Of a DNA stretch of 64,000 bases, positions 1 to 14,110 are shown piece after piece. The translations under genes were made by a program, and so were the position numbers. Each line of letters starts with the position of its first letter. Position 1 is the stretch's first letter. Below the pieces are notes generated by a model. The model did no database searches. It was not told the DNA's origin and was given only the letters and a program-made list of their open reading frames with translations. The DNA is from Methanothrix sp. (GTDB taxonomy: Archaea > Halobacteriota > Methanosarcinia > Methanotrichales > Methanotrichaceae): the NCBI GenBank assembly GCA_037128175.1, contig JBAXWY010000004.1, positions 32,001 to 96,000 of the forward strand, read 5' to 3'.

Positions 1-354
1 GCAAAGGACCTTCTGGATGCCAAACTTCCTCTGCAGATGATTGACGAAATAGGTAGAGACCGCTCCGCTAAAGAAATAGCTCTAAAAATGTCAGAAAAAC
101 TATTTTCAGACACGAATGCGAATGGAGGATCTATTGAGAAGTATCTATTCTGGCCGAGAACTAGAGAACGTCTGAGAGATCGGGTGAAATATCTATTCCT
201 GGTAGGCTTCAAACCCACACAAGTCGACTACGATGCCTTCCCATTGCCGGATTTTTTATATCCATTTTACTGGATCATCAGGCCCGTTCGCCTGCTCTGC
301 AAATATCGGGTCAAAAAAAAGAATGTGACTCATCAGGAGGGAAAAACTTTATGA
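1..354 (+). CDS. Nucleotidyltransferase family protein (NTP_transf_5-like), C-terminal part; gene begins before the window
   Basis: Frame is open from position 1. The C-terminal signature KPTQVDYDAFPLPDFLYPFYWIIRPVRLLCKY resembles RiPP/lasso-cluster-associated nucleotidyltransferases. Stop overlaps the next start (ATGA). Confidence 0.6.
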   Translation, partial: AKDLLDAKLPLQMIDEIGRDRSAKEIALKMSEKLFSDTNANGGSIEKYLFWPRTRERLRDRVKYLFLVGFKPTQVDYDAFPLPDFLYPFYWIIRPVRLLCKYRVKKKNVTHQEGKTL

Positions 355-644
355 GTGATGATGACAATTTAGCAATACCAATCCCTAACCCAGCCTCTTT
401 CTTTAAGGAGGACCACGCAGGTTGGGGGGTGCTGGTCAACATGGATACTGCTGCCTCAGTAGCCTTGAACCCCACAGGCACGATGATCTGGAAGCTGATC
501 GATGGGAAGCGTAGCTCAAGGGACATCGCACTAGCATTTATGAAAGGCTTTCAAGATGCACCGCATTCGGTATATGAGGACGTAATGGCCTTATTGGATT
601 CTTTGGCAGAAGATGGTCTGATAGGCTATGAGGTTAGAATATGA
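351..644 (+). CDS. scmD: PqqD family / RRE peptide-binding protein (ScmD-like)
   Basis: 97 aa with LNPTGTMIWKLIDGKRS and DVMALLDSLAEDGLI PqqD motifs; GGAGG RBS; upstream of rSAM/SPASM genes. Confidence 0.85.
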   Translation: MSDDDNLAIPIPNPASFFKEDHAGWGVLVNMDTAASVALNPTGTMIWKLIDGKRSSRDIALAFMKGFQDAPHSVYEDVMALLDSLAEDGLIGYEVRI

Positions 645-913
645 CTCGCTATCTTGCCAACTCAGTGGTTTCTTGTCGTGACGAAGGTGAGGATGGGGCT
701 CTGCTCTTTAATCCGGACCTGGACGGGGCGGCTCTCATAAATCCTACCGGCCGCTTGATCTGGGATATTCTGGTTTTGCCCCATACGGTGGAGGAGATCT
801 CCAACCTCCTGGCTGAAAAGCTGAATATCACGGATGCATCGGTTGTCGAAAATGATGTGGATTCGTTTTTAAAGACGCTCCAGCCTGATTATATTCTGGT
901 GGATGAAGATTGA
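641..913 (+). CDS. Second PqqD family / RRE protein
   Basis: 90 aa with LLFNPD, INPTGRLIW and DVDSFLKTL PqqD pattern; translationally coupled on both sides. Confidence 0.85.
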   Translation: MTRYLANSVVSCRDEGEDGALLFNPDLDGAALINPTGRLIWDILVLPHTVEEISNLLAEKLNITDASVVENDVDSFLKTLQPDYILVDED

Positions 914-2052
914 AACCTGTTCTTCGCTTCGAAGACGATCTGACGGTCCCTCCGCCCGGCCTGATGAGGGTGCCGAATACCGTTGAGATCTGCATCACGG
1001 GGAGGTGCAACCTCTCCTGTCGCTATTGCTTTTATGCCGATGAGATGTCTGCCCTCAAAGACCTGCCAAAGGAACGCTGGCTATCATTTTTCGAAGAGAT
1101 GGGCTCGCTTGGAGTGCAGAGAGTCACACTCAGTGGAGGCGAAGCCTTCACAAGGCCCGATATCTTCGAGCTGATCGACGGCCTGATCGATAATAAGATG
1201 CGCTACAGCCTGCTTACCAACGGAACGCTGATCACCGAAGAGACGGTAGAAGCCTTTGGTGTGGGCAAGCGCCGTCTGCGCCTGGATTCGATACAGTTTT
1301 CCATTGACGGCTCATGCGCTGAAGTTCATGACGCCAGCCGCCCGCCTAAGAGCTTCGATCGAGCGCTGCGCGCCCTTCGGCTCATGAAAGAGCGCGCGTT
1401 TCCCCTGGCCGTTCGAGTGACTGTCAACCGCTACAATTTGCATGATCTGGAGAATATCGCCCGGCTGCTGCTGGAGGATGTAGGGCTGGCGTCCTTTGGC
1501 ACCAATGAGGCGGATCGCTTCGGATCGGCTAAATGCTATGGCCAGGATGTAGTGCTCACGCCCGCGGAGCGGTTAATAGCCATGCGGACACTGAAAGCTC
1601 TGGCGATGCGCTATCCCGGCCGGATCGCTGCTGCTGCCGGGCCGCTGGCCATGGCCAACATGATTGAAGATATCGAGAAGAGGCAAAGCCGCGGCGAGAC
1701 GGGAATGCCGGGCAGGGGAACGCTCTGCTCCTGCGGCGGAGCCTTCCAGAAGCTGGCAGTACTTCATGACGGGACAATAGTGCCCTGCAACCTTTTGCCG
1801 GACTTCAAAATGGGGGAGATCGGCAAGACGCCTCTCCTGGAAGCATGGCTGCACGGCCAGGCTATCAATGCTCTGCGCAAGAGAAGATCGATTCCATTGT
1901 CGTCTCTTCCTGAGTGTCGGGACTGCAAGTACACGGGCTTTTGCGCAGGGGGCTGTCCGGCTGTGATCTACGCAAAGTTGGGTAGGCTGGATACAATCGA
2001 TCCAGGTGTCTGCTACCGTCAATTCAAGGAGGCAGATCATGTCGCTTTGTGA
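910..2052 (+). CDS. scmE: Radical SAM/SPASM peptide maturase, ScmE-like
   Basis: CNLSCRYC motif, SGGE, and C-terminal SPASM cysteines (CSCGG, PC, CRDCKYTGFCAGGCPA, C). TTG start. Confidence 0.85.
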   Translation: MKPVLRFEDDLTVPPPGLMRVPNTVEICITGRCNLSCRYCFYADEMSALKDLPKERWLSFFEEMGSLGVQRVTLSGGEAFTRPDIFELIDGLIDNKMRYSLLTNGTLITEETVEAFGVGKRRLRLDSIQFSIDGSCAEVHDASRPPKSFDRALRALRLMKERAFPLAVRVTVNRYNLHDLENIARLLLEDVGLASFGTNEADRFGSAKCYGQDVVLTPAERLIAMRTLKALAMRYPGRIAAAAGPLAMANMIEDIEKRQSRGETGMPGRGTLCSCGGAFQKLAVLHDGTIVPCNLLPDFKMGEIGKTPLLEAWLHGQAINALRKRRSIPLSSLPECRDCKYTGFCAGGCPAVIYAKLGRLDTIDPGVCYRQFKEADHVAL

Positions 2053-3193
2053 TCTGCAAGTTGAGGAGCCTTTGACACCCCCGGCGAGCCTCCCTGTGGG
2101 TGTCCCGCCGCTCCGGGCCTTTTACCTGTACATGACCACCGGCTGCAACCTGCGCTGCCGCCACTGCTGGGTGGTTCCCAGATACGTAAAAGGCAGGCCT
2201 GATCCAGGTGAGGTGATCGACGCAAAGCTTTTGCAGCGAGCTGTCGAGGAGGCAAAGCCCCTGGGCCTATGCAGCGCCAAGATCACAGGCGGAGAGCCTT
2301 TGCTCCATCCCCAATTTAAAGAGATTGTGAAGATGCTCTCCGACCAGGGTCTGGGCCTGAACATGGAGACCAATGGGACGCTGATGACACCACAAATCGC
2401 CCGCTGGCTGAAGGAAGAGACCCGTGTGGGTTTCATATCCGTGAGCCTGGATGGCGCAGATGCCGCGGCGCATGACAGCTTCCGGGGCGTGCCCGGTGCC
2501 TTCGATTCAGCGCTCTTGGGATTGGATGCACTGTTCGGGGCGGGTTATCGGAATGTTCAGGTGATCATGAGCGTCTATCGAGGCAACGCCCTGCAAATCG
2601 ATGATGTTGTGGCCCTGGCCAGAGCGCACGGCGCGAATTCGGTCAAGTTTACACCGGTCACCAATACCGGTCGCGGCGCAGCTCTGCATGAAGGGGGAGA
2701 GGCCCTTGATCTGCCGGAGCGTATGGCTCTGGCAAAATACGTCCAGGATGATCTGGCCGGACGGGCGGGCATCAGTCTGGTGATCAACCTGCCGCCGGCT
2801 CTTCGAACATTTGACAGGTTGTGGCAAAGCCGTGGGCGCACGGGTGATTGCGGCGTGGACCGCATACTGGGCATCCTGGGGAGCGGCGAGATCGCCATGT
2901 GCGGCATTGGCCAGACCATTCCTGAGCTGGTGTACGGACGACTGGGCGCAGACAGCATCCGGGATATCTGGCTGGGCCACCCCAAGTTACTGGAGCTGCG
3001 CCGGGAGATGGAGGATGTGGCGGCCTATCCGGGCATCTGCGGGTCTTGCCTTCATGCTAAATCCTGCCGGACGGGGTGCGTGGCCAACAACTACCAGCAA
3101 GCAGGCCGCATGGTCTGCCCTTCGGCTTCCTGCACTGAGGCGGAGAAGCGCGGTCTCTTCCCGAAGGCACGGCAAAGGTCATATTCGAGATAA
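2039..3193 (+). CDS. scmF: Radical SAM/SPASM peptide maturase, ScmF-like (copy 1)
   Basis: GCNLRCRHCW, TGGEP, CG...ILGILGSGEIAMCGIG, GICGSC..KSCRTGCVA. ATG at 2039 follows AGGAGG. Confidence 0.85.
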   Translation: MSLCDLQVEEPLTPPASLPVGVPPLRAFYLYMTTGCNLRCRHCWVVPRYVKGRPDPGEVIDAKLLQRAVEEAKPLGLCSAKITGGEPLLHPQFKEIVKMLSDQGLGLNMETNGTLMTPQIARWLKEETRVGFISVSLDGADAAAHDSFRGVPGAFDSALLGLDALFGAGYRNVQVIMSVYRGNALQIDDVVALARAHGANSVKFTPVTNTGRGAALHEGGEALDLPERMALAKYVQDDLAGRAGISLVINLPPALRTFDRLWQSRGRTGDCGVDRILGILGSGEIAMCGIGQTIPELVYGRLGADSIRDIWLGHPKLLELRREMEDVAAYPGICGSCLHAKSCRTGCVANNYQQAGRMVCPSASCTEAEKRGLFPKARQRSYSR

Positions 3194-3229
3194 TCATTTA
3201 GCATAAAATTAGTAAGAGGTGTGTGAGAT

Positions 3230-3436
3230 ATGGACTGCATAAAGAATGGATCCAGTAGCGAAGGTTCAAGCGAGAAAAAGGATTACGAGCCTCCCAAGGC
3301 CATGCGCCTGGGCGATATGCGTAACGGGGCAGGCGTTTGTTCTAATACAGGCAGCGGCGATGGTGAATCATGTTCTGGCGATGGCAATTCGGCCGCAGGG
3401 GGATGTTTTGGCGACGGCAATAATGTGAGTTTGTGA
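3230..3436 (+). CDS. Putative RiPP precursor 1 (68 aa)
   Basis: Leader KKDYEPPKAMRLGDMRNGAG; core VCSNTGSGDGESCSGDGNSAAGGCFGDGNNVSL; GAGGTG RBS; homologous to four downstream ORFs. Confidence 0.85.
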   Translation: MDCIKNGSSSEGSSEKKDYEPPKAMRLGDMRNGAGVCSNTGSGDGESCSGDGNSAAGGCFGDGNNVSL

Positions 3437-3464
3437 AAAGAATTTTTGCAGTGGCTTTATAACA

Positions 3465-3600
3465 AAGCGCTTGACCCTGGCCGATGACATAAGCCTTAGG
3501 ACCGCGGCAGAAAATGGCCCCCCAGGCTGGCCGTCGATCGGTCGGGCTATGTCAGCTTTGGCTGAAAAAAGGCAGAGGGCGGCTGATTGTGGCCGCAGTA
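3465..3600 (+). pseudogene. Remnant of the 5' end of scmC
   Basis: Encodes KRLTLADDISLRTAA, compared with MRLTLADGTSLRIAA in ScmC. Ends in GATTGTGGCCGCAGT, matching scmC 6383-6397. Confidence 0.75.
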
Positions 3601-3670
3601 GACGTGCCTCAATTCGAAGATATTTCCAGGAATCGAGAAAAGGGGGTAAATTTGGAAGGGATGATGGTCT

Positions 3671-4855
3671 TTGAAGTCTGAACACCAGGTAGAGCATTTG
3701 GCATCAGCCTGTGATGAGCCCAGGCCTTTGGCAGAGGCAGCCCTTGACCTTCCCAAAGGCGTCCCGCCGCTGCGCTCGCTTCAGCTCTATCTCTCAAATG
3801 GCTGCAACCTCAAGTGCCGTCACTGCTGGGTGAACTCAAAATACATAAGCTGTGAGCCGGAATCATGCGACCTGATCGATGTGGATCTCCTGCGCATAGC
3901 CGTGGCCGAGGCCAGGACGCTGGGGCTTTACAGAGCGGTTCTCACCGGTGGAGAGCCCCTGCTTCATCCACGATTTCGCGAGGTGGTGGAGATGCTCTCC
4001 GCAGAGGGCCTCTTCCTCTGTCTGGTCACAAACGGCACGCTTCTTACCGGGGAGATGGCCGGCTGGCTGAAGAACTGCCCCACATTAACCTCGATCTGCC
4101 TCAGCCTTGATGGAGCGGATGCAAAGACGCATGACGAATTTCGCGGCGTCTCCGGTGCCTTTGAGGCGGCTTTGCGGGGACTTGATCATCTGGCGGATGC
4201 CGGTCACAAAAATCTGCAGGTGATATGCTGCATCAACCGCCTAAATCTTCATCAGGCCGATGATCTGGTGGCCCTGGCAGAAGATCATGGTGCAACCTCC
4301 GTCAAGTTCACCCCCCTTGGAAACAAGGGACGAGGGGCGGCATTACATGCTCAGCAGGTGGGCCTCAGCCTGGAGGAGCTCATTGCTTTTGAGAGGCACG
4401 TGCGCACAGAGCTTGCCAAAGAGACCAAGCTGCCTCTCTTTGTCAGCCTCTTTCCTCCTGCCTTTCTTCCCCAAAAGGAGCTGTGGCAGAGCAATGGAGT
4501 TATCGGCACCTGTGGTGTCATCACCAATCTGGGAATCCTGGGAAGTGGCGAGATCTCCCTGTGCGGCATTGGGAGGAGCGTTCCGGATATGGTCTTTGGA
4601 CGGCTGGGCGCGGACAGCATCCGGGATATCTGGCTTTGCCACCCCAGGGTACTGGAGCTTCGCCGGGAGCTCACGGATGTGGCGGCCTATCCGGGCATAT
4701 GCGGGGACTGCATCCATGCCGGAGCATGCCGTACGGGATGCGTGGCCAACAACTACGTGGACCAGAGCCGCCTGGTCTGGCCCTCGGCTTTTTGCGCCGA
4801 GGCCGAGGAGCGCGGTATCTTTCCGGAGGCACGGCGAAAGTCATCTTCAAGATAA
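3671..4855 (+). CDS. scmF: Radical SAM/SPASM peptide maturase, ScmF-like (copy 2)
   Basis: GCNLKCRHCW, TGGEP and SPASM cysteines. Clear paralog of 2039-3193 (shared LGADSIRDIWL and DVAAYPGICG). Confidence 0.85.
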   Translation: MKSEHQVEHLASACDEPRPLAEAALDLPKGVPPLRSLQLYLSNGCNLKCRHCWVNSKYISCEPESCDLIDVDLLRIAVAEARTLGLYRAVLTGGEPLLHPRFREVVEMLSAEGLFLCLVTNGTLLTGEMAGWLKNCPTLTSICLSLDGADAKTHDEFRGVSGAFEAALRGLDHLADAGHKNLQVICCINRLNLHQADDLVALAEDHGATSVKFTPLGNKGRGAALHAQQVGLSLEELIAFERHVRTELAKETKLPLFVSLFPPAFLPQKELWQSNGVIGTCGVITNLGILGSGEISLCGIGRSVPDMVFGRLGADSIRDIWLCHPRVLELRRELTDVAAYPGICGDCIHAGACRTGCVANNYVDQSRLVWPSAFCAEAEERGIFPEARRKSSSR

Positions 4856-4881
4856 TCATTTTGCAAAGAGGTGCGAAAGGG

Positions 4882-5091
4882 ATGAACAACATAAAAAAAG
4901 GAGCTGGTAGTGAAGGTTTGAACGAGAAGAAGGCTTATGAACCTCCAAAGGCAATTCGCCTGGGAGATATGTGTGATGGAGAAGGCAGGATGTGTACTTC
5001 GTCTGGCAGCGGCGATTCAAACTGTGACACAACCGGCAATTCGGCAAGCCTCCTTTGCAGAACCGGCAATAGTGGCCCGAACGACGGGTGA
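4882..5091 (+). CDS. Putative RiPP precursor 2 (69 aa)
   Basis: MNNIKKGAGSEGLNEKKAYEPPKAIRLGDMCDGEG then RMCTSSGSGDSNCDTTGNSASLLCRTGNSGPNDG; GAGGTG RBS. Confidence 0.85.
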   Translation: MNNIKKGAGSEGLNEKKAYEPPKAIRLGDMCDGEGRMCTSSGSGDSNCDTTGNSASLLCRTGNSGPNDG

Positions 5092-5190
5092 TTGTGGCCG
5101 CAGTGAACTGGCCGAGAAGTGTGGTCTCTTCCCGGCGGCGCGGTGAAAGTCATCTTCACAATAATCATTTTGCAAAGAGGTGTGAAAGAT

Positions 5191-5406
5191 ATGAACAACA
5201 TAAAAAAAGGATCAAGCAGCGAAGGTTTGAACGGGAAGTTGGCCTACGAGCCACCCATGGCGTTGCGGCTGGACGATATGCGTGAGGGAGAAGGCACTTC
5301 TTGTTCATCATCAGGCAGTGGCAATGCCACCTGTCAAACAAACGGCAATTTAGCAAGCTCCCGCTGCAGCACATCCGGCAATAGTGGCCCGAGTGGCCCG
5401 TCATGA
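5191..5406 (+). CDS. Putative RiPP precursor 3 (71 aa)
   Basis: MNNIKKGSSSEGLNGKLAYEPPMALRLDDMREGEG then TSCSSSGSGNATCQTNGNLASSRCSTSGNSGPSGPS; GAGGTG RBS. Confidence 0.85.
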   Translation: MNNIKKGSSSEGLNGKLAYEPPMALRLDDMREGEGTSCSSSGSGNATCQTNGNLASSRCSTSGNSGPSGPS

Positions 5407-5618
5407 ACGGATCTACAAAGCGTCTTGCTCTGTCCGACGGCACCAGCCATCGGATTGCTGCAGGAGATGACCTCTCCCGGCCGGCCGTCGATCACCAGGG
5501 CCGGACTTATGTAGCTTCATTCGGCCAAAGGTCGCAGGCGGATGGTTATGGCCGCAGTGAACAGGCCGAGAAGTGCGGTCTCTTCCTGAAGTCACGGCAA
5601 AGGTCATATTCAAGATAA
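5403..5618 (+). pseudogene. Chimeric remnant: scmC 5' end fused to scmF 3' end
   Basis: N-terminal KRLALSDGTSHRIAAGDDLSRPAVD matches the ScmC N-terminus. C-terminal AEKCGLFLKSRQRSYSR matches the ScmF copy 1 C-terminus (AEKRGLFPKARQRSYSR). Confidence 0.75.
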
Positions 5619-5654
5619 TCATTCAGCATAAAATAGAAAAGAGGTGCGAAAGAG

Positions 5655-5864
5655 ATGGACAGCATAAAGAAAGGATCCGGTAGCGAAGGTTTGAACGGGA
5701 AGTTGGCCTACGAGCCTCCCAAGGCTATGCGCCTGGACGATATGCGTGAGGGAGAAGGCGTTTCTTGTTTATCATCCGGCAGTGGCAATGCCTCCTGTCA
5801 AGCAAACGGCAATTCGGCAACCTTCACCTGCGCATCATCAGGCAATGGTGTCCTGGATGGATGA
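5655..5864 (+). CDS. Putative RiPP precursor 4 (69 aa)
   Basis: MDSIKKGSGSEGLNGKLAYEPPKAMRLDDMREGEG then VSCLSSGSGNASCQANGNSATFTCASSGNGVLDG; GAGGTG RBS. Confidence 0.85.
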   Translation: MDSIKKGSGSEGLNGKLAYEPPKAMRLDDMREGEGVSCLSSGSGNASCQANGNSATFTCASSGNGVLDG

Positions 5865-5963
5865 TTGTGGCCGCAGTGCACAGTCCGAGGAGCGCGGTCT
5901 CTTCCCGGCGGCGCGGCGAAAGTCATCTTCAAGATAATCATTGAGCAAAGAGGTGCGAAAGGG

Positions 5964-6173
5964 ATGAACAACATAAAAAAAGGATCTTGTAGCGAAAGTT
6001 TGAACGGGAAGTTGGCCTACGACCCCCCCAAGGCTATGCGCCTGAACGATATGCGTAGCGGGGCAGGCGGGCCGGGTTGCTTCAATACTGGCAGCAGTAA
6101 TAGTTCCAGTTGTTCTACAGGCAGTAGTGCTAGTGGTCTGGGATGCATTTCATCAGGCAATAGCCCCAGATAA
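5964..6173 (+). CDS. Putative RiPP precursor 5 (69 aa)
   Basis: MNNIKKGSCSESLNGKLAYDPPKAMRLNDMRSGAG then GPGCFNTGSSNSSSCSTGSSASGLGCISSGNSPR; GAGGTG RBS. Confidence 0.85.
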   Translation: MNNIKKGSCSESLNGKLAYDPPKAMRLNDMRSGAGGPGCFNTGSSNSSSCSTGSSASGLGCISSGNSPR

Positions 6174-6242
6174 CGGGGCAGGCTCTTGTTATGGAGGCAG
6201 TGGCGATGTTGACTATTGCGAAGTTGGCAATGGCGTGCTGAC

Positions 6243-7784
6243 ATGAATCGAGCTGCAATGCGCTTGACTCTAGCCGATGGCACAAGCCTTCGGATTGCTG
6301 CAGGAGATGACCTCTCCCGGCCAGCCGTCGATCTGTTGGGACGGGCTATGCAGCTATGCCCAGCCGAGGGCGATGAGCGGTTGATTGTGGCCGCGGTGGA
6401 TGAAGCAGGGGAGCCACAGCCATCCGGCAGCCCACAGGTTTGCATTCTCAGACCGTCTAATAGCGACGGCGATGTTACCGGTCAGGCTGTGGAGCTCTCG
6501 CTGGCCATAGCCAGGGATGTCCAATCTCGGGGAGGCGTTCTGCTGCATGGCGCTCTGGCGAAACGCGGTGGCTATGGCGTGATCATGGCCGCGCCGGGAT
6601 GCACCGGCAAGAGTACAGCCTCCAGGCGTCTGCCTTTGCCCTGGGAATCGCTTTCCGATGATGCCACGCTCGTGGTGCAGGACGGCATGGGCCGCTACTT
6701 TGCTCACCCCTGGCCCACCTGGAGCCTCTTCTGGGAAGGATCCGGCGGCACCTGGCCCACGGAGAAGGCTGTGCCCTTAAAGGCGATCTTCTTCCTCGCT
6801 CAGGCCCCTCTGGAGAAAGTCGAGCCGATTAACCAGACTGTGGCCGCTGCCATGCTCATGCTGTCTGTGGAGCAGGTCTCCAGGTCCATGACTTATCGCC
6901 TTTCGCCAGAAGAGGTGCATCAGGTCCACAGCCGGCAGCTTACAAATGTCTCGGCCCTGGCAAAAGCCGTGCCCGCATTCATTCTGCAACTGAGCCTGAC
7001 CGGTCAATTCTGGGTGGAGATGGAGCGCGCCCTGCAAGGCCTGCAGGGCCTCGATAAGCAGGTGGTTTTGCATCCATCTCCCGCGCCTCCTATCTCGGCA
7101 GGTTCATTTTTCGGGGGCTCGCTTCCCATTGTCCTCACCGGCAATAGCATGAATCCCTTCCTGCGCTCGGGCGACCTATTGGAGGTCATGCTTCTGAGCC
7201 GTGAGCTTTCGCGTGGCGACGTGATCTACTTCCAGTCTCCCGACGAAGAAGGAATGGTTGTGCATAGAGTCGTGCGCCTCAATGCTACTGGGGCCCAAAC
7301 CCGCGGAGACAACAACCCTACCGATGATCCAAAACAGGTGCCATTCGATGCGATCGTGGGACGGGTAGTCGCGGCCCACCGTGGCCAAAGACGCTTTTGT
7401 GTCCCAGGAGGACGGCAGGGCCTGGCCAGATCTTGCCTGGGAAAAGCCCGGCGTCAGATTCGATCGAGCTTGGCGAGGCTCTTTGGCAGCGCCTACCGCG
7501 GCCTGGCCCGGACGGGATTGGGAAATCGCCTCCTTCCGGTGCCTTTGAGGCCGCGCATGGTGGCATTCGGCTCAACTCCTCGCCAACATTTGAAGCTCGT
7601 CTGTGGCCAAAGCGAGATAGGGCATTATGACGACCGGGCAGGGCAGTGGAAAATCCGGCTACCCTTCCGGCTGATCGTGGATGAATCGGCTCTGGGGCGG
7701 GCAGCCGCTCAGGTGGACGAGGCAAGGACGCAGGCCAGAGACAAGACCCTGGAGAGACTGCGCATGCGTGCCGGCAATGCATAG
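6243..7784 (+). CDS. scmC: ScmC-like HPr-kinase-related protein fused to an S24/S26 (signal peptidase-like) domain
   Basis: LLHGAL, P-loop AAPGCTGKSTASRR, LSDD and AHPWPTWS in the N-terminal part. TGNSMNPFLRSGD, VVHRVV and TRGDNN in the C-terminal part (Ser-His S26-type). Confidence 0.8.
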   Translation: MNRAAMRLTLADGTSLRIAAGDDLSRPAVDLLGRAMQLCPAEGDERLIVAAVDEAGEPQPSGSPQVCILRPSNSDGDVTGQAVELSLAIARDVQSRGGVLLHGALAKRGGYGVIMAAPGCTGKSTASRRLPLPWESLSDDATLVVQDGMGRYFAHPWPTWSLFWEGSGGTWPTEKAVPLKAIFFLAQAPLEKVEPINQTVAAAMLMLSVEQVSRSMTYRLSPEEVHQVHSRQLTNVSALAKAVPAFILQLSLTGQFWVEMERALQGLQGLDKQVVLHPSPAPPISAGSFFGGSLPIVLTGNSMNPFLRSGDLLEVMLLSRELSRGDVIYFQSPDEEGMVVHRVVRLNATGAQTRGDNNPTDDPKQVPFDAIVGRVVAAHRGQRRFCVPGGRQGLARSCLGKARRQIRSSLARLFGSAYRGLARTGLGNRLLPVPLRPRMVAFGSTPRQHLKLVCGQSEIGHYDDRAGQWKIRLPFRLIVDESALGRAAAQVDEARTQARDKTLERLRMRAGNA

Positions 7785-7796
7785 GCCGAAAAGAAT

Positions 7797-8495
7797 ATGC
7801 AGTTATTCGCCCTACCTACGTGCATGTTGGATGAGTTCATCCGTTACACTGCCCTGCAGCGCGATCAAGCTCCTTTGGCCTCTCTATTGATTTACCTGAA
7901 GCGAAAAGGAGGCTATGTTCAGCTCAATCAGATCTGGCGGGAGAATGGACCCACCGGGGGCGGCCCCTTCTGGAACCAGACCACCCTTTTAAACAAGCTG
8001 GACAAGCTGGAGCGCCTGGGGATTGTCAGCATGGAGCGGCGAATTCTGCCCTCGCCCCGCGATGAGGCCAAAAAAAAGACCAACACCTTCTACCGGATAA
8101 GTCCCGAAACACCCCTTTATCCTTACATCTTCGGCATGCTCAAGATCTACCGGGAGGAGCCGGATAAATATTCCTCGGAACTGGTGGAAAAGCCCCTCGA
8201 TCATCTAAGCGATCTGGCAGGCCGCTGTGCCTCCGGCGACCCGCTGGTGGGCCGGGAGCTGGATGTGGCCATGGAGCTGATCGGCGAGGTCTTCTCTGTG
8301 GGAGGCGACGAGGTCAAGAGGATGATCAAGGAGAGGATGGCCAGAAGGGGCATGATCAGGGATCGCAGGAATGAGCTGCCGGAAAATGCCCCCGCAGAAA
8401 TAAAAATAAAGCCGAAGAGGGCCGGGGCAGAGGCAAAAAAATCCACGAAGAAAGAAAAGACGAAACCCATGTCCGAAGAAGAGGATTCAGAGTAG
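7797..8495 (+). CDS. Hypothetical protein with probable winged-helix domain
   Basis: 232 aa; NQTTLLNKLDKLERLGIV...TFYRIS wHTH-like pattern; Lys/Glu-rich tail. Confidence 0.55.
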   Translation: MQLFALPTCMLDEFIRYTALQRDQAPLASLLIYLKRKGGYVQLNQIWRENGPTGGGPFWNQTTLLNKLDKLERLGIVSMERRILPSPRDEAKKKTNTFYRISPETPLYPYIFGMLKIYREEPDKYSSELVEKPLDHLSDLAGRCASGDPLVGRELDVAMELIGEVFSVGGDEVKRMIKERMARRGMIRDRRNELPENAPAEIKIKPKRAGAEAKKSTKKEKTKPMSEEEDSE

Positions 8496-10740: not shown

Positions 10741-10867
10741 TTCATGATCCACCCCCAGCAAGAATCACTTTTTAATCATATTTGTGTCCAAAACATAAAG
10801 TGGCAGGCTTGCTCTATTCAAACCTTATGCGACATTGTGATGTGCTCTATTAATATTAGTATATAAT

Positions 10868-11407
10868 TTACAACTTGATTTTGGATTCACATAAGGATCC
10901 TGCGCGCATGAAAGAACCGAGTTCATCTTTTCCGCTAGTTTTTTGAATTTTACAGCAAATATGATAATTCCAATTTTTAATGCCACATTCTCTGTTGATA
11001 TGATCTTCCAGCTCTTGGTTCCTTATCTTTACATGAACACTTCCAGGTACACTAATGAATGCCATCCATTTTATGTCTTGATTCTCTAAGCGGTTGCATC
11101 TGGTTATTAGAGATTTATATACACATGCAATTTGTTCTATGGCGTCCTTGATTTTATGTCCTTTGAGCTCAACTAGGCAAAGTATCTTAGTACTCATATT
11201 ATCATAAGCAAGAGTTACAATTAAGTCGCAAATTCTATCAATATTTAAATCACTTTTCAAAGGACATTTCTTGTTATTGGTATCATCTATTAAGAAGAAT
11301 TTGACATCCTCATGTTTTCTAGGGATTACATTTACTCGATTTCCCATCTTGGGCTCTTTCCAAGAGGTTCCCTCAATTAGGCAAGGTTTTAGAGTATCAC
11401 ATAGCAT
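10868..11407 (-). CDS. Hypothetical protein, possible PD-(D/E)xK-like nuclease partner of the AAA ATPase
   Basis: ICD...VELKG..(I)KDAIEQI motif; AT-rich; 12 bp after the ATPase stop. Confidence 0.55.
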   Translation of the reverse strand: MLCDTLKPCLIEGTSWKEPKMGNRVNVIPRKHEDVKFFLIDDTNNKKCPLKSDLNIDRICDLIVTLAYDNMSTKILCLVELKGHKIKDAIEQIACVYKSLITRCNRLENQDIKWMAFISVPGSVHVKIRNQELEDHINRECGIKNWNYHICCKIQKTSGKDELGSFMRAGSLCESKIKL

Positions 11408-11419
11408 CCAAATATCTCC

Positions 11420-12892
11420 TTATAACTCCATCCTTAAATCTAGAATTCTTTGTGATACCTGATTAAACGTTTCCCATTCTATGAATCCGTCCTCTTCTAG
11501 AATGCTTTTCGCTGTACCATCTGCAAATAGGTATACGGAAACATTATCTTTTGAGATAAATGCCTTCGAATTTTTTAAATAAAATTTGTCTTTTATTGTT
11601 TCTAAATTCTCCAAGGACGCTGCTTTCATTAAATTAATGAGATGATCTACGATATAGGGACTGTGCGTGGTAATTATTACATGGATACCAGAATTTACTA
11701 GCATTACTATAAACTCGATAAGCTTTGCTTGTGCTTCAGGATGCAGATTCATTTCTGGCTCATCAATAACTAAGAGATTTCTTTTATCTGCAAGATATCT
11801 TAAATATAATACCAGTGGGGAGAGTTCCTTTACCATTGAAGAGGCCACAGGTATATCTACAGATATTCCTTTTGGATCTAACGGCTTAAAAAGAAGTTCT
11901 CTCGCCGGATTTGGCTCTGGATCTGAGTAGTCAACATTCCCTTGAAGTATTTCTTTCTGCAGGATTTCAGCTAACTGCAAATAGGTTTCTACATTTCCAT
12001 TTTCTTTTATCTCTCGTTGGCGCTTTGAATAGCTCCCTTCATGCATGGTCTTACCAAGTAGGCTTATCAATCCATATATTGGGTCAGAGATTATTAGACT
12101 TACATTTCGCTCTTCATCGATATTTGTACCGATTTCTGAATCATTTTCCATTTTATTCGACCTCATATTTTCTATTTTGCTAGGTCTCATAAATAACTGA
12201 ATTAGATCCGTAAATGCGATCCGCTCAGACGGGAAAAAATATATATTAAAATAAACAGATCTTGAGATTATTCTAAATACATTAGAAATTATAATATCCT
12301 CTATTGCTCTCTTGGGGACTCGTTTTTTAAAATCAACATCTTCGGAGGAATTATCCGAAATATCGCTATTAGATGTGTAAAATGAGATGTCTGGATTATT
12401 CTTTTCTTTGAGCAAATTTAATAATGCTTTGCCGTCTTTACTTATAAAAAAACTGGCTTTCATGCCGTATGATGTAATGTTCTGTACAATTTGATCATTG
12501 CTCTCTTTGAGATTCACACTCATTTCCATATCCTTGAAATTAGCATTTGAACTTCCCAGGAAATCCTGAATCCATTCCTTCTCAAGAAGCCCTAGATCAT
12601 TGAAATAATATTCGCCAAATTCATTATAGAAGTCAATTAAGTTAATTTTAGTACTGCCAAAATCAAGAAGTTGTATTATTGCATTATCCAAAGACGGATA
12701 TATTCCACGAGTTTCATTACTTAAATAGGATTTTACATATTCACTCCAGGAGCGTGATCCAAAGAGGGCTGAAAGTGTATAAGCTGTCCAAGTTTTTCCA
12801 GCATTATTGGGGCCAACAAAAACCGTTAATGGTTTTACTTCAATTGATGTCTCCTTCTTAATGGGTCCTAGGTTATTAATATTAACGTCCAT
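11420..12892 (-). CDS. ABC-type AAA ATPase (AAA_15/AAA_21, AbiEii/OLD-like)
   Basis: Walker A GPNNAGKT, signature ASSMVKEL, Walker B LLVIDEPEMNLHP, H-loop ITTHS; AT-rich. Confidence 0.85.
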   Translation of the reverse strand: MDVNINNLGPIKKETSIEVKPLTVFVGPNNAGKTWTAYTLSALFGSRSWSEYVKSYLSNETRGIYPSLDNAIIQLLDFGSTKINLIDFYNEFGEYYFNDLGLLEKEWIQDFLGSSNANFKDMEMSVNLKESNDQIVQNITSYGMKASFFISKDGKALLNLLKEKNNPDISFYTSNSDISDNSSEDVDFKKRVPKRAIEDIIISNVFRIISRSVYFNIYFFPSERIAFTDLIQLFMRPSKIENMRSNKMENDSEIGTNIDEERNVSLIISDPIYGLISLLGKTMHEGSYSKRQREIKENGNVETYLQLAEILQKEILQGNVDYSDPEPNPARELLFKPLDPKGISVDIPVASSMVKELSPLVLYLRYLADKRNLLVIDEPEMNLHPEAQAKLIEFIVMLVNSGIHVIITTHSPYIVDHLINLMKAASLENLETIKDKFYLKNSKAFISKDNVSVYLFADGTAKSILEEDGFIEWETFNQVSQRILDLRMEL

Positions 12893-12994
12893 GTTAGTTC
12901 TCCTTTAATGTATGGTCCATTTAAGATAAGTTGGTATCCTATTTGAATGCTTAGAATGGTTGAAAAAAGAAATGAAATATGATTCGCGAAGCGG

Positions 12995-14110
12995 TTACTC
13001 CGCATTCACGAACCTTTTCTCCAGCACCTTCATGACATGGGGGAGTGTGGTGTACTCCATGTCCTCCATGGGGAGACGCGCCGGCTCGAAGGGCCCGTGC
13101 GCCCTCATGTAATCAGTGATCTCCAGGCATCTCTTGCGGGTCAGGTCGAAGGCCACATCTTTGAAGAGATCCACGGGACCTACGAAGTTTCCGTAGGCCA
13201 TCTGGAAGCCGGCGGCTATGACGCGAGGCGGACCGTCAAACCTTGTGGGGTGCGCGGTCTCAAAGGAGCAGGGCATGAGGGGACCGTTGTGGCTGCCTCG
13301 CATCCATCCGCTTACCAGGTGCCCGAGAGCAAAGGGCTCCAGCACCTCTCCCAAAGCGGGCAGGCCGGACTGGCAGCGCACCAGGGCCACAGGGTCATCC
13401 TTGCCTACGTAAGTTCCAGCCGTCTGGAAGAGCTTCTCCGTGCTTACCACAGCCACGGCCTCCTGCTCGGAGATCTTGCTATTCGGCTTGCAAAAGACCC
13501 TCTTGATCACATAGCGGCTCTTGGCGCCGATAAGCGCCAGCAGGTCGTACATCTCGCCCGGGCAGTACATGAAGACCCGTCTGTGCTCCATGATATCCCA
13601 GACCTCGAAGGTGAAGCCATGATGGCAGGCCGGATCTATGACCAGGCCGGCTGTGTTGAAGGGGTCGGCGAACATCTTGAAGATGGGCAGATTGAAGGCC
13701 CCCGGTTCGGTCTTGTCCATCATGAAGGCGACGACGGGCTCAGAGGTGCGCTCCTCAATCTCCATCTCCGCCACGCCCGGTCCCATGCCGCGAATGTTGC
13801 CGGAGAAGGCGTCCGCCAAAAGATCCTGCCCGGCTCCGTAGAGCTTGAGCTTCTTGGCAACAACGGTTGCCTCCTCGAAGGTCTCCCAGGCCAGGGCATG
13901 CACCTCGCCGTTGTCGCAGCCTTTCTTGTGGCTCATAAGAAGCTCCAGGTCGTCGCCGCAGGCAAGCACCCTAAAGTCTATCAGTGCGCCGGACTTCTTG
14001 GCCTGGGCAAGCTTCGACTCCGCAGTCTCGATCAATGCTGGATGGACCGAGGAGTGGCCGGGATAGCCGCCAACATCGGCTTTTATCAGGCTGATTGTGA
14101 TCTTTGTCAT
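12995..14110 (-). CDS. fbp: Bifunctional fructose-1,6-bisphosphate aldolase/phosphatase (class V)
   Basis: SLIKADVGGYPGH, GDD, LYGAGQDLL, DKTEPGAFN, YVGKDDP, GWMRGSH, MEYTT. Confidence 0.95.
   Translation of the reverse strand: MTKITISLIKADVGGYPGHSSVHPALIETAESKLAQAKKSGALIDFRVLACGDDLELLMSHKKGCDNGEVHALAWETFEEATVVAKKLKLYGAGQDLLADAFSGNIRGMGPGVAEMEIEERTSEPVVAFMMDKTEPGAFNLPIFKMFADPFNTAGLVIDPACHHGFTFEVWDIMEHRRVFMYCPGEMYDLLALIGAKSRYVIKRVFCKPNSKISEQEAVAVVSTEKLFQTAGTYVGKDDPVALVRCQSGLPALGEVLEPFALGHLVSGWMRGSHNGPLMPCSFETAHPTRFDGPPRVIAAGFQMAYGNFVGPVDLFKDVAFDLTRKRCLEITDYMRAHGPFEPARLPMEDMEYTTLPHVMKVLEKRFVNAE

Follow-up and report, generated by a model that had tools for sequence, protein, structure and literature searches.

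What is produced by a locus in which five short open reading frames (ORFs) with a common leader lie among enzymes of peptide modification? The locus fills the first 7,784 nucleotides of the window, a 64,000-nucleotide stretch of a Methanothrix sp. contig (JBAXWY010000004.1), where the original prediction saw a SynChlorMet (Scm) cassette with its substrates. The neighbours that it named, two RREs, three radical SAM (rSAM)/SPASM enzymes, ScmC, and a nucleotidyltransferase, were all confirmed by family models (Table 1), and our sequence comparisons indicate that the five ORFs are real precursor peptides, so far unrecognised, of a widespread peptide-modifying cassette. We think it quite probable that they are divergent ScmA-family peptides whose maturation is carried out by the operon in which they lie, one of a subtype in which ScmC is fused to a peptidase, via the pathway proposed below.

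Table 1. Features of the locus in window coordinates.
Feature	Position	Strand	Remarks
PF14907 (NTP_transf_5) nucleotidyltransferase, 3' end (401 aa in full)	1-354	+	E 1.1e-60, 205.7 bits
ScmD1, discrete PqqD-type RRE, 97 aa	351-644	+	TIGR04248 50.7 bits (cutoff 100); PF05402 E 1.5e-13
ScmD2, second discrete PqqD-type RRE, 90 aa	641-913	+	TIGR04248 38.6 bits; PF05402 E 1e-8
ScmE, rSAM/SPASM, 380 aa	910-2052	+	TIGR04250 373.5 bits (cutoff 400)
ScmF1, rSAM/SPASM, 395 aa	2006-3193	+	TIGR04251 343.2 bits (cutoff 400)
Precursor peptide 1	3230-3436	+	68 aa; GAGGTG 8 nt upstream of ATG
ScmC 5'-end remnant, frameshifted	3468-3603	+	tblastn matches 3468-3551 and 3553-3603, two reading frames
ScmF2, rSAM/SPASM, 394 aa	3671-4855	+	TIGR04251 307.7 bits
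Precursor peptide 2	4882-5091	+	69 aa
Precursor peptide 3	5191-5406	+	71 aa
ScmC 5'-end remnant, 34 codons	5403-5504	+	74% identity to live gene; repeat family D5
ScmF 3'-end remnant, 18 codons	5562-5615	+	
Precursor peptide 4	5655-5864	+	69 aa
Precursor peptide 5	5964-6173	+	69 aa
ScmC + signal peptidase I fusion	6216-7784	+	TIGR04249 169.5 bits (cutoff 125); TIGR02228 55.3 bits (cutoff 51.85)

As predicted, the five ORFs combine a common leader with a variable three-Cys core, and their starts and plus strand were confirmed, all products having 68-71 aa. Their alignment contains 22 invariant columns, among them M1, I4, K5, Y19, P21, P22, R26, L27, D29, M30, G33, G35, and the three core Cys, which occupy positions 37/48/59 in peptide 1, 38/48/59 in peptides 2 to 4, and 39/50/61 in peptide 5, the spacing of 10-11 residues that had been claimed. 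The count of three Cys holds for the cores, but the whole peptides 1, 2, and 5 have one more in the leader (C3, C31, and C9, respectively), and the Gly of the proposed Cys-Gly unit lies in this genome mostly at Cys+4, not Cys+3. The sequence AAGAGGTG is invariant upstream of all five ATGs, and a genome-wide search places all five precursor matches within a single cluster. RNA-library contigs span all five ORFs with 0 mismatches; these are assembled contigs from one study, at depth 2-6 and unstranded, in which DNA carry-over is possible.

The abundance of duplication remnants in the locus raises the possibility that only one precursor copy is a real gene and that the remaining ORFs are functionless debris of tandem duplication. 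Remnants recognisable at the DNA level, like the 18-codon ScmF piece, also precede precursors 3 and 5, and the five copies evidently result from cassette segments having been duplicated repeatedly. Yet the duplicated ScmC and ScmF pieces have decayed, being truncated or frameshifted, whereas each peptide ORF retains its ATG, Shine-Dalgarno site, and reading frame, and all five retain the three core Cys and the invariant residues of the leader. The pN/pS of the leader is 0.42 when pooled and below 1 for each computable pair, the pairs being non-independent and dS being saturated in many core pairs. It is thus hardly credible that four of the peptides are mere debris.

The family recurs far beyond this genome. 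The original prediction had suggested searching other Scm neighbourhoods with an HMM of these peptides, and a model based on these five sequences only matched 52 ORFs in 44 of 80 loci selected by ScmC, in many phyla, with zero matches among the other 16,467 six-frame ORFs, which supports the claim that the ORFs are substrates of the cassette. With a broader peptide model, a match was found beside ScmC in 63 of the 80 loci; 16 of the 17 missed loci are interrupted by contig ends. Such recurrence in independently selected loci exceeds chance, although the loci include close kin, so that the counts exaggerate independence, and many are truncated. Within the host's class, 8 of 11 fetched peptide matches sit directly between ScmF or ScmE and ScmC. 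A set of 5.8 billion proteins holds 115 relatives, and 1,175 representative clusters match at E<=0.001. Across 75 family peptides, the first Cys follows the leader Tyr at a distance of 18 residues in 46, GxG is found in 62, and Cys-Cys intervals of 10 or 11 residues make up 240 of 326; Gly stands at Cys+3 in 78%, and in 62% the first unit has Ser at Cys+4.

Such a peptide might, like PQQ or mycofactocin, serve inside the cell as a cofactor or in metal handling, instead of being exported as a natural product. Cofactors, too, are made by rSAM/SPASM enzymes with a discrete PqqD-type RRE, the NCBIfam matches include the maturases of mycofactocin and PQQ, and the anaerobic hosts have a high Fe-S demand. 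A cofactor precursor would, however, be expected to remain conserved, and therefore the hypervariable cores, the varying number of precursors per locus (1 to 5), and the patchy occurrence of the cassette (12 of 392 genomes of the host's class) argue against this role, as does the ABC exporter in 52 of the 80 loci. We consider it very unlikely, and retain the reading of an exported peptide.

How do these peptides relate to the named Scm families? The original prediction took the cassette to have been defined without a precursor, but NCBIfam already has TIGR04252 (SCM_precur_ScmA), beside TIGR04249 for ScmC, TIGR04248 for ScmD, TIGR04250 for ScmE, and TIGR04251 for ScmF, and the claim of novelty was therefore overstated. 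Our literature search found no paper on the Scm cassette. TIGR04252 is a narrow model; it does not match the five window peptides, and its cutoff is reached by 0 of the 76 ScmC-linked peptides. Relatives of the window peptides match it below threshold, in alignments beginning at the YExP motif, and these matches have in common with the window peptides the YExP...GxG leader and the Cys repeats. The window contains the same five components as the Scm cassette and its ScmC exceeds the family cutoff, but its ScmD, ScmE, and ScmF are all under theirs; the order is D1-D2-E-F-precursor-C::peptidase, instead of precursor-D-E-F-C; and its five precursors and two ScmF are the largest set seen, against at most three precursors in the 80 loci. 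In a quick, midpoint-rooted tree of ScmC, the fused subtype falls on one side of a branch with 99% SH-aLRT. Two RRE types occur with the fused peptidase in 11 loci and without the fusion in 1, and the ScmD2-type RRE is nearly confined to the fused-peptidase subtype. We regard the operon as a separate, 'fused' subtype of the SynChlorMet cassette.

The profiles of both window RREs match TbiB1, LppB, and PbaB1, the best matches of ScmD1 being TbiB1 (3.9e-8) and LppB (PDB 9x8z, 7.8e-8); ScmD2 matches LppB at 1.3e-5. ScmE and ScmF score below the NCBIfam cutoffs, yet these families are by far their best matches. ScmF1 and ScmF2 are 57% identical. The SPASM Cys motifs are complete in all three rSAMs, and ScmE carries CX3CX2C (residue 33) and CX2CX5CX3C (residue 336), both of which motifs also occur in ScmF1. 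The closest solved enzymes, SkfB (thioether) and PqqE (C-C bond), are at similar distance, and CteB (thioether) and SuiB (C-C bond) are also among the nearest, all remote. ScmE and/or ScmF could perform non-thioether chemistry—e.g., C-C or C-O crosslinks, epimerisation, or Cys conversion—with the Cys perhaps acting as ligands or recognition points. BlsE and PqqE rank alongside SkfB, outside its own family ScmE matches WgkB best in NCBIfam (122.5 bits), with heme and PQQ enzymes next, and the two distinct rSAM families per cassette suggest two reactions. Against this, Cys, then Gly, is the sole strictly periodic residue of the repeats, and periodic Cys are the usual signature of thioether RiPPs, such as the CX3D motifs of freyrasin. 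A like signature, CxxQ/D, is reported in the accessible text on CrpA (PMC13692751). Non-thioether chemistry seems to us possible but rather doubtful. With thioethers as the preferred chemistry, a three-ring product is plausible, although sequence by itself cannot decide the matter.

ScmC consists of a P-loop kinase-like region (~10-285), followed by a signal peptidase I domain of the archaeal/ER type (~300-385) and by a tail of ~130 aa; its translation probably begins at the ATG at 6243. We detected no transmembrane segment in the protein (maximum KD(19) 1.39). Aligned to SEC11A/C, the peptidase domain retains the SM.P, VHRV, and GDNN motifs (SEC11-type Ser, His, and Asp). The kinase-like region has a Walker A motif (APGCTGKS, residue 126), and its residues 148-149 are an invariant DD; D158A/D159A renders PsmK inactive (PMC6993621, accessible part). 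Its fold matches PEPCK-type kinases (Z 12-13.6), HPr kinase being absent among the fold matches listed; an HprK-related model matches weakly (TIGR04352, E 0.0015), and a Pfam kinase search gave no match. The PF14907 gene begins 852 bases upstream of the window, and directly upstream of it lies a 613-aa MsbA-like ABC exporter (MsbA-type models, E 2.6e-89, under their cutoffs). Neither the fusion nor the exporter was mentioned in the original prediction.

That prediction took ScmC and the nucleotidyltransferase for bystanders, and the product for three-ring thioether sactipeptides or ranthipeptides made by the rSAMs alone. The three core Cys at 10-11 residues in each peptide, the full SPASM motifs of three enzymes, the presence of SkfB and CteB among the closest solved relatives, and the ranthionine links made by a methanogen SPASM enzyme in a repeat protein (PMC13692751) would all fit. 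But ScmC, the peptidase (46/80), PF14907 (47/80), and the ABC protein (52/80) widely accompany the rSAMs, even with many loci truncated; the homologous gene set of the linear polyphosphorylated peptides (LPP) works on its own peptide (PMC13381572); and the first repeat unit carries a conserved Ser. ScmC and the nucleotidyltransferase are core LPP-type genes, along with RRE, peptidase, and exporter, and a product of the rSAMs alone, with these two proteins leaving the peptide untouched, seems to us unlikely.

Maturation by the whole operon, which we favour, would involve 1) binding of the leader at Y-E-P-P-x4-L-(G) by ScmD1 and/or ScmD2, discrete lasso/LPP-type RREs, a step proposed from their homology to RREs with solved YxxP-leader complexes; 2) modification of the 10-11-residue Cys repeats by ScmE and the two ScmF paralogues, most likely to one Cys-to-carbon thioether in each repeat; 3) phosphorylation by the P-loop kinase-like ScmC of a Ser, most plausibly the conserved one in the first C-x-x-(x)-G-S-[S/G] unit, and possibly decoration of the phosphate by the PF14907 transferase, both suggested by the precedents of LPP, paeninodin, and pseudomycoidin; 4) cleavage of the leader at or beside GxG, Tyr+14 to Tyr+16, by the soluble signal-peptidase domain of ScmC; and 5) export by the MsbA-like ABC protein. 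The product would likely be a peptide altered at its Cys repeats, cleaved at GxG, and exported, and by analogy it is probably phosphorylated on Ser as well.

Several known systems resemble parts of this scheme. As in ranthipeptides, sactipeptides, and CrpA, SPASM rSAMs are paired with repeated Cys motifs after a leader-like N-terminus; in Methanococcus voltae, the SPASM enzyme CrpC puts ranthionine links on the repeat protein CrpA (PMC13692751). CrpC is, however, a TIGR04463 member with a fused RRE, and its substrate CrpA, built on a 17-residue repeat with CxxQ/D motifs, is at least 100 aa long; the study left out peptides under that length. In the accessible text of that study, the terms 'Scm', 'PqqD', and 'HPr' occur 0 times, and neither a kinase nor an SpI peptidase nor an NTP transferase is described. 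Phosphorylated lasso peptides have in common with the Scm operon a Ser kinase, putative in the case of ScmC, an NTP transferase, a separate RRE protein, and an ABC exporter. In paeninodin and pseudomycoidin, an HprK-type kinase phosphorylates the precursor Ser, and a hexose on the phosphate requires the NTP transferase (PMC6993621). There, the target is the C-terminal Ser, and the Scm operon lacks a macrolactam synthetase and B2 cysteine protease.

In the LPP system, polyphosphorylation of Ser3 and RRE-dependent leader cleavage by an SpI-like peptidase were demonstrated (Popov et al. 2026, PMC13381572, accessible part); LppA is cut between Tyr+15 and Tyr+16, with which the Scm GxG at Tyr+14 to Tyr+16 agrees, and loss of LppK blocks the cleavage. 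The kinase-like ScmC, signal peptidase, exporter, RRE, and PF14907 protein correspond to the LPP gene set, and the ScmD profiles match LppB. The differences are that kinase and peptidase are fused here, that the cores are Cys repeats, and that only YxxP is common to the leaders, the remainder of the LPP leader, VLxHQxIxFET, being missing. LPP clusters are described as restricted to Bacillota. Those reported have no rSAM enzyme, to judge from the main text of PMC13381572, which uses 'radical SAM', 'SPASM', and 'thioether' 0 times each; its supplement might include neighbourhoods with rSAM genes. In the operon studied here, an LPP-type module of kinase, peptidase, and exporter is coupled to rSAM/SPASM enzymes.

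The window, G000:C4:32001-96000, carries five precursor ORFs inside a SynChlorMet (Scm) cassette, and a six-frame profile search of the whole genome matched exactly these five and no other. The alignment of the peptides shows 22 invariant columns; identity to the first ORF is 51-58%, and all share M-(D/N)-x-I-K, S-E, Y19-(E/D)-P-P, R26-L27, D29-M30 and G33-x-G35. The original prediction that each core holds three Cys at 10-11-residue spacing is borne out in all five peptides, three of which have one extra Cys in the leader. Upstream of each ORF stand an ScmF 3'-end remnant and the invariant AAGAGGTG, with GAGGTG ending 8 nt 5' of the ATG. A search of the assembly did not find the 16S rRNA 3' end, so the match of this motif to an anti-Shine-Dalgarno sequence rests on general knowledge.

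Features of the Scm cassette in the window and immediately upstream (the five precursors are 68-71 aa each)
Feature	Window position	Strand	Length	Model match	Remark
MsbA-like ABC exporter	upstream of window	same strand as the PF14907 gene	613 aa		just before the PF14907 gene
PF14907 nucleotidyltransferase	1-354 (3' end)		401 aa	PF14907, E 1.1e-60	
ScmD1, PqqD-type RRE	351-644			TIGR04248, 50.7 bits	below cutoff 100
ScmD2, PqqD-type RRE	641-913			TIGR04248, 38.6 bits	below cutoff 100
ScmE	910-2052			TIGR04250, 373.5 bits	below cutoff 400
ScmF1	2006-3193			TIGR04251, 343.2 bits	below cutoff 400
Precursor 1	3230-3436	+			
ScmC 5' remnant	3468-3603				after precursor 1, frameshifted
ScmF2	3671-4855			TIGR04251, 307.7 bits	below cutoff 400
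Precursor 2	4882-5091	+			
Precursor 3	5191-5406	+			
ScmC 5' remnant	5403-5504				after precursor 3
ScmF 3' remnant	5562-5615				
Precursor 4	5655-5864	+			
Precursor 5	5964-6173	+			
ScmC	6216-7784			TIGR04249, 169.5 bits	above cutoff 125

The remnants of enzyme genes lying between the precursors imply that the locus grew by duplication of cassette segments; the enzyme pieces then decayed, and every peptide ORF was kept intact. The window holds five precursors, against a maximum of three among the 80 loci that we selected by ScmC. Pooled pN/pS is 0.42 for the leaders and 0.59 for the cores of the five precursors, the pairs being non-independent; leader dN/dS is below 1 in all computable pairs, and many core pairs have a saturated dS. 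Metatranscriptome contigs match all five ORFs, as well as enzyme genes, with 0 mismatches (depth 2-6, four runs of one study), which indicates presence in RNA libraries rather than strand, level or absence of expression and could include DNA carry-over; not every bin of the cluster is covered by a contig in every RNA run.

The association between peptide and cassette extends far beyond this genome. At the level of the class, the six-frame search gave matches in 12 of 392 genomes, the window's own included, and in 8 of the 11 contexts fetched the match has ScmF (or ScmE) immediately on one side and ScmC on the other. Weak matches at L018 (a 1,167-nt contig), L030 and L031 have no Scm genes nearby and were taken as noise. 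Across species, loci were chosen by ScmC and not by peptide, as the best 80 of 146 ScmC relatives; they span Thermodesulfobacteriota, Chloroflexota, Acidobacteriota, Lentisphaerota, Verrucomicrobiota, Elusimicrobiota, Planctomycetota, Bacillota, Methanoregulaceae and Methanotrichaceae, among others. A profile built from 15 archaeal peptides has a match in 63 of them. The original prediction had proposed an HMM search near Scm genes, and the full-length model of the five window peptides does find 52 ORFs there, in 44 of the 80 loci, with no further match among their 16,467 six-frame ORFs. An HMM of the leader alone (36 columns, five sequences) recovered just 15 ORFs in 12 loci; as a probe the window leader by itself is too narrow, and it takes the full-length model. 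As for the 17 loci that the archaeal profile left without a match, in 16 the contig edge precedes the site where complete loci have the precursor, and the remaining one (L109), although 4.2 kb of it lies upstream of ScmC, lacks rSAM genes as well. Large protein collections contain 115 relatives, all annotated as 'hypothetical' and none with a Pfam domain. The nearest named relatives are Methanothrix or Methanotrichaceae records.

Some of these loci depart from the usual arrangement. Four precursors (L064:6433-6720, L078:5839-6192, L088:6105-6413 and L105:8476-8679), three from Methanoregulaceae/Methanomicrobiales and one bacterial, lie between or beside ScmF and ScmC on the strand opposite the Scm enzyme genes. 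A precursor copy on a related Methanotrichaceae contig (L024:7492-7785, the same place as L034:427-678) has a single in-frame TAG before the YxxP motif and could be either a pseudogene or a gene with a read-through codon.

The family signature was derived from 75 peptides, i.e., 74 matches and the five window peptides, minus two fragments, one frameshifted copy and one copy interrupted by TAG. Their leader consensus is Y(98%)-E-x-P(100%)-x4-L(90%)-G-x4-G-x-G, with the GxG present in 62 peptides and a distance from the Tyr to the first Cys of 18 residues in 46 and 19 in 15. The cores contain from 2 to 10 Cys, 240 of the 326 Cys-Cys intervals are of 10 or 11 residues, and Gly occupies Cys+3 in 78%. 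The first repeat unit is distinct, C-x-x-G-S(62%)-[S/G] versus C-T-A-G-x-x-A in later units. The window has all the elements of this broad profile of an ScmA-like family: the Y-E-x-P...L-G...G-x-G leader, Cys repeats of 10-11 residues, and adjacency to ScmC, ScmE and ScmF. In two bacterial peptides (L051:2919-3638 and L076:3017-3502) long poly-Gly or Gly-Thr inserts separate the first Cys unit from the later repeats, which again sets this unit apart. Nine stretches of an 816-aa protein, P0120, match the repeat part of the peptide profile, and the Cys repeat may therefore occur in large proteins too.

The original prediction took the cassette to have been defined without a known precursor, which would have made these ORFs the first for an orphan system. 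They are not: NCBIfam contains a candidate ScmA model, TIGR04252 (short name SCM_precur_ScmA), and the cassette was therefore defined together with a candidate precursor. That model is narrow. It matches none of the five window peptides, even at E<=10, and its 35-bit cutoff is reached by none of 76 peptides (the five and 71 others linked to ScmC). At E<=0.01 it finds 12 of these 71, in alignments that mostly start at the Tyr, model position 1, and the best score among them, 31.1 bits, belongs to the window's nearest relative. Four weak six-frame matches on other contigs of the window's own genome, none in the cluster, are not meaningful because 10 of 14 control genomes give comparable noise. 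Scm precursors thus go unannotated because the sole curated model misses them. Our literature search found no paper on the SynChlorMet cassette, nor any product or function, and nothing specific on RiPPs in Methanothrix; PMC10288494 does not mention Scm, HprK or archaea, and the cassette is not named in PMC10114670 or PMC3531188.

The enzymes around the precursors are assigned to the cassette. The ScmE and ScmF models are the top NCBIfam family by more than 200 bits for each of the three rSAM enzymes, though below their cutoffs; all three have the CX3CX2C motif and the SPASM CX2CX5CX3C motif, and ScmF1 and ScmF2 are 57% identical. The two RREs are discrete proteins. ScmC is listed with a TTG start at 6216, and the ATG at 6243 is the likelier true start because the decayed ScmC copies begin at its equivalent. 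The model of its kinase part (pLDDT 79.3, pTM 0.81) matches the whole of the PEPCK-type P-loop kinase fold, with 239-259 of 290 residues aligned at Z 12-13.6, and the match to the HprK-related model TIGR04352 is weak (E 0.0015). HPr kinase is not among the fold matches listed for ScmC, which are taken up by PEPCK entries; this does not count against an HprK-like fold. A Walker A motif and an invariant DD occur in ScmC, and the DD pair is described in PMC6993621 as required in PsmK. [quoted passage not shown] Directly 3' of it lies a 232-aa ORF (7797-8495, +) with no Pfam or NCBIfam match, of which L022, a locus of a related genome, has an 85%-identical copy in the same place.

This fusion marks a subtype. 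In a ScmC tree (quick search, SH-aLRT support, midpoint root) there are two clades with 99% support each. One, of 24 rows, groups all 13 bacterial ScmC::peptidase fusions with 8 of the 9 archaeal rows, the window included; the other, of 57 rows, contains the unfused cassettes, a Syntrophobacteraceae record among them. Of the 58 loci that have an RRE, close kin included, 11 combine the fusion with two RRE types, 1 has two RREs without the fusion, and 2 have the fusion with one RRE.

Two other features of the contig deserve mention. A second RiPP-like set upstream of the window (G000:C4:23100-25947, or L002:3100-5947, minus strand) encodes, besides an rSAM/SPASM enzyme and a PqqD-type RRE, a fusion of an S24/S26 peptidase with a GNAT acetyltransferase and a 64-aa candidate precursor, which has a leader-like W-x-K-P-E-L motif and a tail containing four Cys; homologues of these genes also occur beside Scm cassettes in three other loci (L022, L041 and L066). 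Further downstream, at 10800-13000 of the window, an AT-rich island (GC about 0.34 versus about 0.57 around it) with minus-strand ORFs of 490 aa (11420-12892) and 179 aa (10868-11407) may be foreign DNA.

The analysis shows directly the genes with their conservation and synteny, the signatures of repeat and leader, and the duplication history, and a pathway can be proposed upon them. It would involve 1) binding of the YExP leader motif by the RREs, for or against which a co-fold of ScmD1, ScmD2 and leader residues 1-40, run without controls, does not speak (score 0.05, mark 0.32); 2) modification of each Cys unit by the rSAM enzymes, a thioether being the most likely chemistry (SkfB and PqqE, among the nearest solved rSAMs, lie at about the same distance); 3) putative phosphorylation of Ser by ScmC; 4) removal of the leader at the GxG, presumably by the peptidase domain fused to ScmC; and 5) probable export by the ABC protein. 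We put forward as a tentative joint reading, which we regard as somewhat doubtful, that these systems form a distinct and widespread hybrid class of RiPPs combining an rSAM crosslink per repeat, Ser polyphosphorylation of the type found in linear polyphosphorylated peptides (LPPs), and RRE-guided leader removal by a soluble peptidase. Two rSAM/SPASM enzymes would then make one crosslink per 10-11-residue Cys repeat, an LPP-type module would next polyphosphorylate and perhaps glycosylate the conserved Ser adjoining the first Cys, and in the fused subtype the second RRE would split the labour between the rSAM enzymes and the kinase-peptidase. Methanothrix, in this same conjecture, might hold a five-member precursor library with the duplicated ScmF dedicated to part of it.

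The finding in the window is real and useful. The cassette is common in anaerobes: species genomes contain the 146 ScmC relatives, and the peptides account for 1,175 representative clusters at E<=0.001 (17 of them at E<=1e-10). The analysis yields a working profile of the precursors, a clear signature of their repeats and a connection to the LPP system, which together make the cassette a testable pathway that predicts about -2 Da per Cys, steps of +80 Da on Ser, and cleavage at the GxG. Methanothrix is a major acetoclastic methanogen, and one may speculate that a family of modified peptides, if secreted by it, could bear on interactions in methanogenic consortia. The main text on LPPs (Popov et al. 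2026, PMC13381572) describes them as restricted to Bacillota; the link, if true, would extend SpI-type leader peptidases and LPP-type phosphorylation to archaea and many Gram-negative phyla.

Counterparts of the five functions of LPP clusters also surround ScmE and ScmF in the window, ScmC being the candidate for the HprK-like kinase. An archaeal-type SpI peptidase and a discrete RRE are both present, and the profiles of ScmD1 and ScmD2 match LppB (9x8z), PbaB1 (9x90) and TbiB1 ahead of PqqD. A PF14907 NTP transferase and an MsbA-type exporter stand beside the cassette, and we take the LPP transferase LppN to belong to PF14907. That accession is absent from the main text of PMC13381572, according to which the LPP kinase adds several phosphates to core Ser3, the RRE binds the YxxP motif, and the peptidase cuts the leader only with the RRE present and cuts unphosphorylated precursor poorly. 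Of the LPP leader YxxPxVLxHQxIxFETxxS, the Scm peptides share only the YxxP and its distance from the junction: LppA is cut between Tyr+15 and Tyr+16, and the Scm GxG spans Tyr+14 to Tyr+16. LPPs are linear, with Ser polyphosphorylation as the primary modification and no other class-defining enzyme, and radical SAM, SPASM and thioether go unmentioned in the main text of PMC13381572, whereas the window adds three rSAM/SPASM enzymes. In having SPASM rSAMs with auxiliary-cluster Cys motifs together with RREs, the window cluster resembles those of sactipeptides and ranthipeptides.
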